A stretch of 44,771 nt of DNA from a virus, in UHGV virus genome UHGV-0180729; one strand, given 5' to 3'. Both the position numbers and the translations under genes were made by a program. Shown piece by piece: positions 1-44,771 of this stretch (its first letter is position 1; every line of letters starts with the position of its first letter). The notes beneath the pieces were generated by a model. The model ran no database searches. It saw only the letters and a list, made by a program, of their open reading frames with translations, and was not told where the DNA came from.

Positions 1-989
1 CCCGCGAACCGTAACGTACGCTTTGCCCCGCCGTACTGTATGCAACCGCGACGGCGGTCGTCAGACGAGCGACCCAACAGCAGCGGATTATATTTCGTTG
101 ACGCTGTGGACGCGGCCCCGAGTCGCATCTCGATAATCGTGCGAGCGTCGTCAGGTAAATCATCATCCGCCATCAGGTCGTTAAGCGTAGACTTCTGTGC
201 GTTGTGGATTCGGTGCGCCGGGGCAAATTCACGCAGAATCGGCAGGAAGTCTTTACCAGTAAGCGAGCCGCCATATTTGCGCTGGGCTTCTTCCTGTAAC
301 TGCGCTTTGTGTTTCTCTACAGCTTCAATCGCGGCTTCCGCTAGTGCAACGTCAACCTTAAACCCGCGGTCATTGATTAACTGGTCCAGTTCCAGTACAC
401 GATCTTCGAACTCGGAGTTACCCCAACGCGGCAGCTTATGGAAGACTTCACGCATCGCAGTGATGTCGCTCACGGCGTACTTGATGAACAGCGCCCACTC
501 ATCCGGGTGTGTTTCTGCGGTGTAGCGGCGGATTTTGTAGTTCTTCGGCGTAGGTTTAGAGAAACGCTGAATCAGCGCCTTGCCGCGTTTATCTTTTGCG
601 TTGTCCGCAGACACGCCCAGCACTTCGCACAGTGCATCAAGAGAACCCGGCAACGCGTGGCGAAACGCCCAAATCATCGTATCAATGGTGTTGCTTACCG
701 GGATGTCAAATCCCCAGCAGTGCTTCATGATGAGCCTGTCGAACATTAAGCCGTTGTGCCACACCATCTTAACGCGACTGTTCGGCTTAACCAGACGACA
801 TAACGCACGATGCAAATCACCTGGCATGTCGCTGCCGTCTGTGCAATCCCATACCTGTACAGGCTCGTCGTCAAAAGCATAGGTACAGATAAGCACTTCG
901 GTATTTGGATGTTCAGCGTAAGCGTAGGAACCGACTTTCTTCAAATCGGCTTCGGAGAATGTTTCAAAATCCAAGTATAGGTATCTCAT
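1..989 (-). CDS. DNA polymerase family A, N-terminal part with 3'-5' exonuclease domain; partial at window edge, continues in frame at 44771..43583
   Basis: ATG at 989..987; translation MRYLYLDFETFSEADLKK... contains the DnaQ-like Exo I motif (LDFET); frame open to base 1; bases 2,1 plus 44771 form a Gly codon joining the C-terminal segment. Confidence 0.85.
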   Translation of the reverse strand, partial: MRYLYLDFETFSEADLKKVGSYAYAEHPNTEVLICTYAFDDEPVQVWDCTDGSDMPGDLHRALCRLVKPNSRVKMVWHNGLMFDRLIMKHCWGFDIPVSNTIDTMIWAFRHALPGSLDALCEVLGVSADNAKDKRGKALIQRFSKPTPKNYKIRRYTAETHPDEWALFIKYAVSDITAMREVFHKLPRWGNSEFEDRVLELDQLINDRGFKVDVALAEAAIEAVEKHKAQLQEEAQRKYGGSLTGKDFLPILREFAPAHRIHNAQKSTLNDLMADDDLPDDARTIIEMRLGAASTASTKYNPLLLGRSSDDRRRGCIQYGGAKRTLRFA

Positions 990-1000
990 TATTTTCGACC

Positions 1001-1028
1001 CTTAGTAAAAAGGCCCAATCAAGGGCCT
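1001..1028 (-). terminator. Hairpin plus U-run between the SSB and DNA polymerase genes (possible intra-operon attenuator)
   Basis: Inverted repeat AGGCCC/GGGCCT at 1011-1016 and 1023-1028; minus-strand reading gives a UUUUACUAAG tract after the stem. Confidence 0.4.
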
Positions 1029-1048
1029 TAGTTAAATTGATTCAGATA

Positions 1049-1675
1049 TTAACGGCGGCGACGTTCGCGGCGTGGTGCCTCATCCTCTTCGTCGTCTTCC
1101 AGGTCATCGACACTTGCAGCAACTTTAGAACCGCCGAACGCTTTACCTTCACCAACGTATTTAATCGCCAGCAGGTTAACGCCGAGGACTTTGTATTTCT
1201 GGCTGAACCAAATTTCGACGCTTACGTTAGCGACGCAGCCGCTGTAAACCTGTTCACCTTCAATCTGTTCACCGTCTACATTGAAGTCCTGCTCTACCTG
1301 AGTCTCACCTTTTTTAGAGGTTACAATCAGCGGCTGTTTCTGTGCCTTAGCTTTGAAGTAGAAACCTTCCGGGAAGTCTTCAAACGGATTGTCGCGCTCG
1401 GCGATGTCTTTAATCGCACATTTATCCATGTGCTTACCTTCGCCGTAGTTGGACTTCATCCACTTCTCGGCAGCGGCTGCACCTAACGCTTCTTCAACTA
1501 CAGCGTAAACAGTGTCGTAGAGTGCATCGATTTGAGCATGGTCAGACGGCAGGATAATAGTTGCGCTGTACTGGCCTTTAGTGATTGAGCCATCGTCGTT
1601 TTCACGGTCTTTTTCGCGTTCGAATACGTTAACCCATGCAGTGTTTACTTTACGCAGATTTAATTTCAGTCCCAC
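1049..1675 (-). CDS. T7 gp2.5-like single-stranded DNA-binding protein (DUF2815-like)
   Basis: 208 aa; GTG start with GAGGG Shine-Dalgarno; acidic C-terminal region VDDLEDDEEDE followed by RRERRRR; position between exonuclease and polymerase typical of this SSB class. Confidence 0.55.
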   Translation of the reverse strand: MGLKLNLRKVNTAWVNVFEREKDRENDDGSITKGQYSATIILPSDHAQIDALYDTVYAVVEEALGAAAAEKWMKSNYGEGKHMDKCAIKDIAERDNPFEDFPEGFYFKAKAQKQPLIVTSKKGETQVEQDFNVDGEQIEGEQVYSGCVANVSVEIWFSQKYKVLGVNLLAIKYVGEGKAFGGSKVAASVDDLEDDEEDEAPRRERRRR

Positions 1676-1735
1676 AGTTCAGCCCTCATTAAGTTTAGAT
1701 TTTAAGTTTACTCCGGGAACTGCCCGGCCAGTGAT

Positions 1736-42915: not shown

Positions 42916-42945
42916 CTCTCAATTCCTTATATTGTTGGTGTAGGA

Positions 42946-43230
42946 CTAACTATAATAGTTCGCTATTAGGTTGTCAACCTGTTTGAACGACCCAACGACA
43001 AAAACATTTGCACCGCGTTTACGCATACGCTCGTGCTCACGTAACTGGTGTGGGTCTGGCTTCGTGTTTTCGTCTTTCTTAACCTCGACGAACCAGACTA
43101 TGCCGCTTGGGAGAATTACCAGCAGGTCAGGAGCGCCGGAGCGCCCCTCGTAAGACAATTTACGAACGAGGCCACCGATGGCCTCGAATCGCTCTTTTGC
43201 GTATTTCTGTACGCGGCCCTCTTTAGTCAT
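42946..43230 (-). CDS. VRR-NUC domain nuclease
   Basis: 94 aa; GAPDLLVILPSGIVWFVEVKK is a PD-(D/E)xK core of VRR-NUC type; C-terminus IANYYS is encoded by the promoter sequence. Confidence 0.7.
   Translation of the reverse strand: MTKEGRVQKYAKERFEAIGGLVRKLSYEGRSGAPDLLVILPSGIVWFVEVKKDENTKPDPHQLREHERMRKRGANVFVVGSFKQVDNLIANYYS
42949..42977 (-). promoter_or_regulatory. Sigma70-like promoter, family A (TTGACA-N17-TATAGT)
   Basis: Minus-strand reading TTGACAacctaatagcgaactatTATAGT; the -10 abuts the VRR-NUC stop codon. Confidence 0.55.
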
Positions 43231-43379
43231 GACCGCAGAATCCAGGTAAGGAAAGCTCCGCCTAGAACGGCAACACCAACAAATTTAAAGAACAGGCCAT
43301 AACAGAACATTGCGGCTATCCCCGCACCGAGTAACAGTGCGAGCATGGTTACTATCGTCCAGAATACAAACATTGTCAT
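43227..43379 (-). CDS. Small membrane protein (50 aa)
   Basis: MTMFVFWTIVTMLALLLGAGIAAMFCYGLFFKFVGVAVLGGAFLTWILRS. Confidence 0.4.
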   Translation of the reverse strand: MTMFVFWTIVTMLALLLGAGIAAMFCYGLFFKFVGVAVLGGAFLTWILRS

Positions 43380-43465
43380 AATACGCACCCCTCACGTTTC
43401 GTATGCTCAATCCCGCAGCGCGGACAGATTCGACAGTCTTCTTCGTAGAACCAGTAAATTTTCAT
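43376..43465 (-). CDS. Tiny Cys-rich peptide (29 aa), possible zinc ribbon
   Basis: MKIYWFYEEDCRICPRCGIEHTKREGCVL; ATGA overlaps on both sides. Confidence 0.3.
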   Translation of the reverse strand: MKIYWFYEEDCRICPRCGIEHTKREGCVL

Positions 43466-43593
43466 TCCATCACCCACAGATAAATTGCGATGAACATACC
43501 CAATACGGCGGCCATCATGCCATATTGGCCTTCGTGACAGTAGACACCGGAAGCGAATCCTGCCAGTACCGCGATAATAAGTTTACTTAGCAT
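43462..43593 (-). CDS. Small membrane protein (43 aa)
   Basis: MLSKLIIAVLAGFASGVYCHEGQYGMMAAVLGMFIAIYLWVME; AGGAG Shine-Dalgarno; overlaps the polymerase stop. Confidence 0.35.
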   Translation of the reverse strand: MLSKLIIAVLAGFASGVYCHEGQYGMMAAVLGMFIAIYLWVME

Positions 43594-44771
43594 ATCGTTT
43601 TAACTCCTGACCTTCCGCCACAAGAGGGAAACCCTCTGCCCATTCCGGTAATTCGCACATCAACCGCTCAAGCTCTGCGACATTATATTCAGGTAGATCT
43701 GGCGTCTCGCAGATAATCTCATCGTGAACATGAAGTACAATCGGATAGCCGTTTGCTTCGACGTTCAGCAGCGCATTAGCCAGCAAATCACGGCACAGCG
43801 CCTGTGTGCAGTTTTCCACCAGTTTACCGGAGTAGGTGTACTGGAAGCCCCACTGACGGGTTAACTGGTTTTCGCCCTGGTACTTGATGCGCACGTTAGT
43901 AGACACCTTCCCGTCTTCGTCGGTCTCTTTCGACACGCTCAACCCGACGCCCGGGTAAGACATAACGCGGCCCGACGGCAACGTCATGCGCAACCACCAA
44001 CCCGCGACTTTGTTGTTGTTGTCGGTCTCTACGTTACGTGAAAACTTAACACCTCGCGGTCCTGCGGTGAACTCTTTACCGGGATTACGGATAGCCGCCA
44101 TCGCCGCATCTTCAATATCTCGCCAGAAAGCTACTGTTTCAGGGTGAGACTCACGCCACATGCGCTTGATAGCGTCACAGGTGCGCCACACTTTCTTATC
44201 AAGAATATATGATGGCCGGTCATCTTTTTCACCGGGGCGTGGTGGTCGCTTGGCTTCCTGAATACGCGCCCACTCATAGCCTCGTGCAGTAGCGGCCCAT
44301 ATGTGGTCGGGGAAAGTCCCATCCATTGTTTTTGCCATATCAACAAGGTCAAGGCCGAGGTTCTTGGCGAACTGTACGAATGCGCCGACACCGCCCGCGT
44401 AGCCGAGTCCAAGTTCGCAGGCCTTACCAATCTGGCGTAAGTCTTTACGTTCTTTCTTAATGTAATCCGGCTCCATGCCGAACATCTTTCCCGCGGTTAC
44501 GCAGTAAATATCCAGTCCGGCACGGAACGTATCTAGCGCGGTTTCTTCTCCTGCCAGCCACGCTAAACCACGGCCTTCAACGTTAGAGTAATCGGCGACG
44601 ACAAACTTATGCCCGGCTTCCGGGATAATGCAGCTACGAACCGTAGATGCCGTTAATTTAGCGACGTCAAATCGTCGGTGCGCGCGGCCCTTAAGTAACG
44701 CTGAAATTCCTTTATCCAGTTCATCATCATGGTAGTACCCGCGCGCCAGGTTCTGCGGCTGGAAGCCTTTA
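43583..44771 (-). CDS. DNA polymerase family A, C-terminal polymerase domain; partial, N-terminal part is at 989..1
   Basis: Frame open from the window end; translation contains Pol A motif A (VVADYSNVEGRGLAWL), motif B (RQIGKACELGLGYAGG) and motif C (HVHDEI). Confidence 0.85.
   Translation of the reverse strand, partial: KGFQPQNLARGYYHDDELDKGISALLKGRAHRRFDVAKLTASTVRSCIIPEAGHKFVVADYSNVEGRGLAWLAGEETALDTFRAGLDIYCVTAGKMFGMEPDYIKKERKDLRQIGKACELGLGYAGGVGAFVQFAKNLGLDLVDMAKTMDGTFPDHIWAATARGYEWARIQEAKRPPRPGEKDDRPSYILDKKVWRTCDAIKRMWRESHPETVAFWRDIEDAAMAAIRNPGKEFTAGPRGVKFSRNVETDNNNKVAGWWLRMTLPSGRVMSYPGVGLSVSKETDEDGKVSTNVRIKYQGENQLTRQWGFQYTYSGKLVENCTQALCRDLLANALLNVEANGYPIVLHVHDEIICETPDLPEYNVAELERLMCELPEWAEGFPLVAEGQELKRYAK

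Follow-up and report, generated by a model that had tools for sequence, protein, structure and literature searches.

The DNA polymerase gene at the ends of the record

The virus genome UHGV-0180729 was analysed over its whole length of 44,771 bp (50.2% G+C), here referred to as the window. Both of its ends lie within a single minus-strand gene encoding a DNA polymerase, and a preliminary description of the sequence had proposed that they join in frame inside this gene. The gene is thereby recorded in two parts, as follows.

1-989, minus strand: DNA polymerase, 5′ part, with codons 1-329 and the first two bases of codon 330; 3′-5′ exonuclease-like domain, ExoI D7xE9
43583-44771, minus strand: DNA polymerase, 3′ part, from the third base of codon 330 through codon 725 to the stop; contains motifs A, B and C

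The open reading frame (ORF) of the first part begins with an ATG at position 989, has an in-frame stop upstream of this ATG, and continues to base 1 as 329 codons with two bases left over. The second part, from 44771 down to 43583, consists of one base and 396 codons including the stop, the lowest coordinate of which is 43583. Every one of the numbers given in the preliminary description was reproduced. When the last 1.3 kb and the first 1.1 kb were concatenated and the reverse complement translated, a single open frame of 725 amino acids (aa) was obtained without interruption; the codon at the junction, formed by the complement of bases 2, 1 and 44771, is GGT (Gly330), which confirms both the glycine codon and the length that had been claimed for the joined product.

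The motifs are also distributed as described, the exonuclease motif in the first part and motifs A, B and C in the second. ExoI reads LDFETFS (aa 6-12; window 974-954) with the DxE at aa 7-9, and two more exonuclease-like motifs are found in the same part. Motif A is DYSNVE at aa 390 (D390), motif B is RQIGKACELGLGY at aa 442-454, and motif C is VHDE at aa 678. The Pfam profile DNA_pol_A scores 57.9 bits and passes its cut-off of 34.3, and the DNA_pol_A_exo1 profile, with 19.6 bits, falls under its cut-off of 23.6. Among solved structures, only the region of motifs A and B finds matches, these being the enzymes of Taq and Bst and Klenow/E. coli Pol I. The polymerase is predicted from these profiles and motifs to be a divergent family A enzyme. 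Alignment to T7-type polymerases, which the preliminary description had suggested, fared differently: the T7 gp5 chain was not found in the best 60 of 70 Protein Data Bank (PDB) matches, and "T7-type polymerase" is unsupported as a specific label, the matches being to Pol I instead.

Homology across the junction

Since one random join in three would be in frame, little can be concluded from the frame by itself, and homology across the join decides. A query of 552 nucleotides (nt) centred on the junction matched 112 phage records, and at least 80% of its length was aligned in 91 of them; each of the matches listed is in one piece and lies under an annotated DNA polymerase, the best pairing 552 nt with 552 nt. 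Against each of two members of the genus Kagunavirus, K1G and BUCT825, a single high-scoring segment pair (HSP) of 3.6 kb wraps the junction at ~91% identity. With the K1G polymerase (726 aa) the alignment covers the full length at 98% identity; its sole indel falls at residue 582, at a distance of 252 residues from the junction, and the window, K1G and BUCT825 do not differ in the 40 residues surrounding Gly330. A 20-mer search showed the junction to be internal to two IMG/VR contigs of 44.8 and 45.1 kb, which are ~88-90% identical and do not represent the same phage; an exact 50-mer over the junction had no match in IMG/VR. The ends of the window share no overlap of 10 nt or more, and any overlap produced by the assembler must therefore have been trimmed beforehand.

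From these alignments the join is judged to be seamless, with no base missing or duplicated. A frame break or a lost polymerase segment at the junction, either of which the preliminary description had named as evidence to the contrary, was looked for and none was seen, homology being continuous in 91 records. The same data bear on whether the window might be only part of a larger replicon, or a contig that was not completed, its in-frame join being a coincidence or an assembly artefact. The one-in-three chance of the frame would permit this; base-exact homology across the join in the 91 records argues against it, as do the collinearity around the entire circle with complete genomes of 42-45 kb, no core gene being missing, and the fact that 5,426 complete E. 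coli genomes contain no match to the window's last 4.8 kb. We regard such an origin as scarcely credible, and the window is rejected as an excerpt of a larger replicon or a prophage.

Genome identity and completeness

The phage records matching the junction derive from E. coli, Salmonella, Klebsiella, Raoultella and similar hosts and belong to Guernseyvirinae siphoviruses, the best matches all being Kagunavirus. The order of HSPs is monotonic around the entire circle against both K1G, deposited as a circle of 43,587 bp, and BUCT825, and the length of the window falls inside the 40.8-45.8 kb of its relatives. Its size and G+C content agree with the ~41-45 kb and ~50% G+C that characterise Kagunavirus. 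Protein-level annotation transfer recovered every core K1G gene, in order and with 81-99% aa identity, except for that of the large terminase subunit (TerL), which is present in a divergent form. The packaging and head functions comprise the terminase subunits, portal, head morphogenesis protein, scaffold and major head protein; those of the neck and tail comprise the neck and tail genes, tape measure, distal tail proteins and the anchor of the tailspike. Replication and repair are represented by both helicases, the VRR-NUC nuclease, the polymerase, a Gp2.5-like single-stranded DNA (ssDNA) binding protein, the DUF2800 exonuclease and the helicase-primase, and lysis by the holins, endolysin and spanins. 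Scans of the window for tRNA genes and against Rfam returned nothing, and no long direct or inverted repeats marking ends were found, although a collapsed terminal repeat would escape such a search anyway.

The claim of the preliminary description that this is a complete phage genome is thus borne out by the collinearity with K1G and BUCT825, the full core gene set and the length. By these measures the window is the complete, non-redundant genome of a virulent K1G-like E. coli siphovirus of the genus Kagunavirus, Guernseyvirinae. Apart from the polymerase, the following features were annotated.

1049-1675, minus strand: DUF2815/Gp2.5-like ssDNA-binding and annealing protein (98.6% aa identity to K1G gp39; phrog_112)
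1736-2266, minus strand: HNH homing endonuclease, an insertion with respect to K1G and BUCT825 (Pfam HNH_3, 4.8e-18; no DNA match in either)
2233-3474, minus strand: DUF2800/PD-(D/E)XK exonuclease
5438-7678, minus strand: replicative helicase-primase (AAA_25)
12328-12901, plus strand: two holin genes (100% and 93% aa identity to the K1G holins)
12828-13412, plus strand: HNH endonuclease between holins and endolysin (phrog_99, 1.1e-68)
13409-13891, plus strand: endolysin (phage lysozyme)
15992-16543, plus strand: small terminase subunit, TerS (phrog_3064; body conserved with K1G, C-terminal ~35 residues in the swapped cassette)
16543-17778, plus strand: large terminase subunit, minority allele (Pfam Terminase_6N/6C; 40% aa identity to K1G TerL)
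17791-19272, plus strand: portal protein (DUF4055)
19309-20385, plus strand: head morphogenesis protein (Mu F-like)
20456-21079, plus strand: HNH homing endonuclease, an insertion with respect to K1G and BUCT825 (phrog_953, 4.4e-76; no DNA match in either)
22408-24215, plus strand: head scaffolding and major head protein (96% and 93% aa identity to K1G)
25113-28575, plus strand: head-tail adaptor, neck, tail terminator and tail tube genes
29061-30191, minus strand: DNA repair exonuclease, metallophosphoesterase-like (97.6% aa identity to K1G gp22)
30705-33665, plus strand: tail assembly chaperone(s) and tape measure (tape measure diverged, 56% over the C-terminal 328 aa)
33719-34549, minus strand: HNH homing endonuclease between tape measure and distal tail genes (phrog_953, 2.3e-63)
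34405-38325, plus strand: distal tail proteins, homologues of K1G gp27-gp30 (96-99% aa identity)
38338-40413, plus strand: tailspike (N-terminal 130-aa anchor conserved, receptor-binding part exchanged)
40576-41091, minus strand: Toprim/primase-like small protein of 171 aa (phrog_849, 3e-48)
41088-42518, minus strand: SNF2-type DNA helicase (96% aa identity to K1G gp33)
42946-43230, minus strand: VRR-NUC nuclease, Holliday-junction resolvase in the K1G annotation

Instead of a packaged linear genome, a circular sequence could also represent a true episome, that is, a phage-plasmid or another carried extrachromosomal element. There is one record to this effect: a whole Kagunavirus genome was filed as the circular, non-mobilizable "plasmid pC16EC0033-2" (CP088689.1, 1-44086) of a South Korean E. 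coli isolate from blood. It is the single such record among 72,556 plasmids, whereas all 112 junction-matching records of the phage collection are phages of E. coli, Salmonella, Klebsiella and similar bacteria. No replication-initiator, partition or integrase gene was recognised in the 40 window ORFs scanned or in the annotation of the relatives, and the window carries the full set of virion, lysis and replication genes. An episome is accordingly very improbable. The plasmid reading was rejected, its sole match being itself a whole phage genome without maintenance genes; CP088689.1 is probably a carried or contaminating lytic phage.

Relationship to other members of the genus

Intergenomic similarity was calculated in a VIRIDIC-like manner against four members of the genus, namely K1G, BUCT825, phage 26 and VIPECOTH07. 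The values obtained for the window range from 61.8 to 67.1%. The ICTV criterion for a genus is a genome-wide nucleotide similarity of at least about 70%, a line to which these values come near; by the same calculation, K1G and phage 26, both accepted members, share 64.5%. In the phage collection, neither half of the window is covered to 80% by any record. Because the similarity of 62-67% is well under the species line of 95%, the window is, on these comparisons, a new, previously undeposited species of a known, mosaic genus.

K1G (NC_027993.1), the type species of Kagunavirus, is collinear with the window around the circle, with 98% aa identity in the polymerase, 99% in the distal tail protein and 96% in the helicase; it differs in that its record is opened at the terminase by convention and its TerL is only 40% identical. 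K1G also has an endosialidase tailspike, which the window lacks. The K1G genes without a counterpart in the window are all accessory and comprise those for the mobE endonuclease, a methyltransferase, polynucleotide kinase, an ATP-binding protein and superinfection immunity, with a few small ORFs. Conversely, the window possesses four HNH endonucleases and a Toprim-like gene that are not in K1G. Phage 26 (NC_073320.1), also a Kagunavirus, has the same gene order and shares the minority TerL allele, with 93% nt identity across terS-terL. It differs from the window by an intergenomic similarity of ~64%, a DNA methylase which the window lacks, and another tailspike.

Opening of the record within the polymerase gene

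The division of the polymerase gene belongs to the record, not to the phage, a circular assembly having been opened at an arbitrary base. The RefSeq record of phage 26, annotated as a "circularly permutated genome," presents the same picture: its polymerase is split between 1-2011 and 42272-42462 and was left as two misc_features in place of one coding sequence, and its ends likewise join into an intact polymerase. The split in phage 26 lies ~670 codons into the gene, compared to codon 330 in the window. For Salmonella phages, SPAdes contigs with identical ends were circularised, giving rise to "genes spanning the contig extremities" (PMC9409062). A genome opened inside a gene is therefore routine, with a precedent in the same genus and the same gene, and there is nothing unusual about the ends. 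In practice, the window can serve as a complete genome, and its end fragments should be annotated together as one polymerase gene; for comparison with its relatives, the record is best re-opened at the terminase.

The terminase cassette

The swapped cassette spans window positions 16450-17770 and comprises the last ~35 residues of TerS and all of TerL. The TerL protein of the window is 40% identical to that of K1G and BUCT825, and the sequences flanking the cassette are ~90% identical to all members. At the nucleotide level the cassette is 93-96% identical to that of a Kagunavirus minority (phage 26, hz69, AV104, BCH953P1, LM02P1, Ec1-ASingh), and the window shares the minority TerL allele with eight records at 95% or more. 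Which TerL allele is present goes together with the sequence of the last ~35 TerS residues, and the body of TerS is conserved. It is the C-terminal tail of TerS that binds TerL. Because only this tail has been swapped, the body being conserved, the recognition of DNA by TerS is probably unchanged.

Searching the sequences in the PDB with the window TerL as a single sequence returned only noise. A profile was therefore built from eight diverse TerLs, the window allele included, and this matched the TerLs of D6E and P74-26 (E ~4e-16), Sf6 gp2 (E = 2.9e-7) and RB49/T4 gp17 (E = 6.6e-4). Judged by molecule names, no significant PDB match of the profile was a lambda/HK97-type (cos) or T7-type terminase.

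Packaging of the genome

The preliminary description took the join to imply a circular or headful-packaged, permuted genome. The assembly does close as a circle; headful packaging, however, does not follow from the join, because genomes with cos ends or terminal repeats also assemble as circles and may be opened anywhere. Headful (pac) packaging is nonetheless the likeliest mode and one that we consider probable, given what reads have shown for relatives and what the terminase resembles. For the Guernseyvirinae-like phage Shashou, PhageTerm predicted a pac site (PMC6776780), and it called three Salmonella phages headful (PMC9409062); the TerLs of K1G and K1H group with headful terminases in a tree which covers the K1G-type allele only (PMC5582158). 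For the Kagunavirus fBC-Eco01, PhageTerm found no termini (PMC9825357), and the termini of a 43-kb siphovirus with 51% G+C, in a paper discussing Kagunavirus, were likewise not determined.

In such a scheme, replication would produce concatemers, on which the terminase (TerS, 15992-16543; TerL, 16543-17778) would make its first cut near a pac site, each head then being filled with slightly more than one genome length. The virion DNAs would be linear, terminally redundant and circularly permuted. Reads would overlap all the way round, and the assembler would return a circle without natural ends, opened at an arbitrary point. The mechanism that we infer would be shared with P22, Sf6 and SPP1: a concatemeric substrate, a first cut directed by TerS, terminating cuts set by the full head, and redundant, permuted DNA. 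To Sf6 gp2, TerL of the window type is related remotely and in the ATPase domain only (E = 2.9e-7). In the window phage, a pac site and terminal redundancy are predicted features.

Several points weigh against headful packaging. The text of the fBC-Eco01 paper describes a cos mechanism, though as generic background (PMC9825357), and the phage 26 record carries a note that speaks of "cohesive ends." The TerL of the window is divergent, with its 40% identity to the K1G-type TerL of the published phylogeny; in the literature, no analysis of termini was found for any phage with the minority allele, nor was any paper found on phage 26 or on circular permutation in "Jerseyvirinae."

The genome could thus be complete and the join real and the virion ends nevertheless fixed, as cos ends or direct terminal repeats, and not permuted. 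A phage of either type would also be assembled as a circle, so that the join does not discriminate, and with a TerL so unlike the usual Guernseyvirinae allele the packaging data for relatives are not simply transferable; the "cohesive ends" of the phage 26 note point the same way. On the other side, read-based analyses within the subfamily have yielded calls of pac/headful packaging or detected no termini; cos ends and direct terminal repeats were never reported. The recognition body of TerS is conserved with K1G, only the TerL-binding tail having been swapped together with TerL, and the TerL profile matches headful-type enzymes (Sf6 gp2, T4 gp17) and, among its significant PDB matches, none named as cos or T7-type. 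Fixed ends are on balance unlikely, and headful packaging remains the preferred mode. There is, further, a slim chance that the cassette of terS tail and terL confers a packaging behaviour unlike that of the majority allele, in the precision of cutting, the headful size or even the type of end.

Accessory genes, tailspike and repeats

The four HNH ORFs, some with AP2-like DNA-binding domains, are located between conserved genes at sites which are empty in K1G. BUCT825 has an endonuclease annotated between the holin genes and lysozyme, and VIPECOTH07 carries an HNH gene at the same tape-measure site. The HNH ORF at 33719 is found on the strand opposite to that of the tail operon.

The first 130 aa of the tailspike form the Kagunavirus anchor and are 81% identical to K1G. 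When 50,697 phage records were searched, its C-terminal 561 aa matched one protein, the tail spike (87% aa identity) encoded by the 149-kb Escherichia phage KKE7M; the receptor-binding part is not the K1 endosialidase of K1G.

The Toprim-like ORF (40576-41091) is situated directly downstream of the SNF2 helicase and occurs in VIPECOTH07 and CP088689, not in K1G. The accessory genes of K1G that are missing at 28604-29064 (minus strand) and 42518-42946 are an ATP-binding/deoxynucleoside monophosphate kinase-like gene, polynucleotide kinase, the superinfection-immunity gene and DNA methyltransferase. The first of these intervals instead holds two short ORFs (76-77 aa). One of the pair may be a remnant, its match to an ATPase-like PHROG being confined to the C-terminal part of the latter.

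Repeated promoter motifs of sigma-70-like type, in two families, are found upstream of gene blocks, TTGACT-17-TATAGT and TTGCAC-17-TACTAT (transcribed strand), at 1737-1774, 5110-5147 and 42947-42984, and at 8562-8603, 10297-10338 and 30563-30600. GC-rich hairpins flanked by runs of A and T occur at the convergent gene ends at 28571-28612, 33671-33712 and 40409-40450, and this family looks like a set of bidirectional terminators.

Implications for the genus

The genus Kagunavirus is in use for phage therapy and synthetic-biology work, and the window adds to it what appears to be a new species at its edge, with a receptor-binding module common to a 149-kb phage. Should the terminase cassette indeed alter packaging, the genus would constitute a natural allele-swap system for the role of TerL in determining genome ends, with recognition by TerS held constant.

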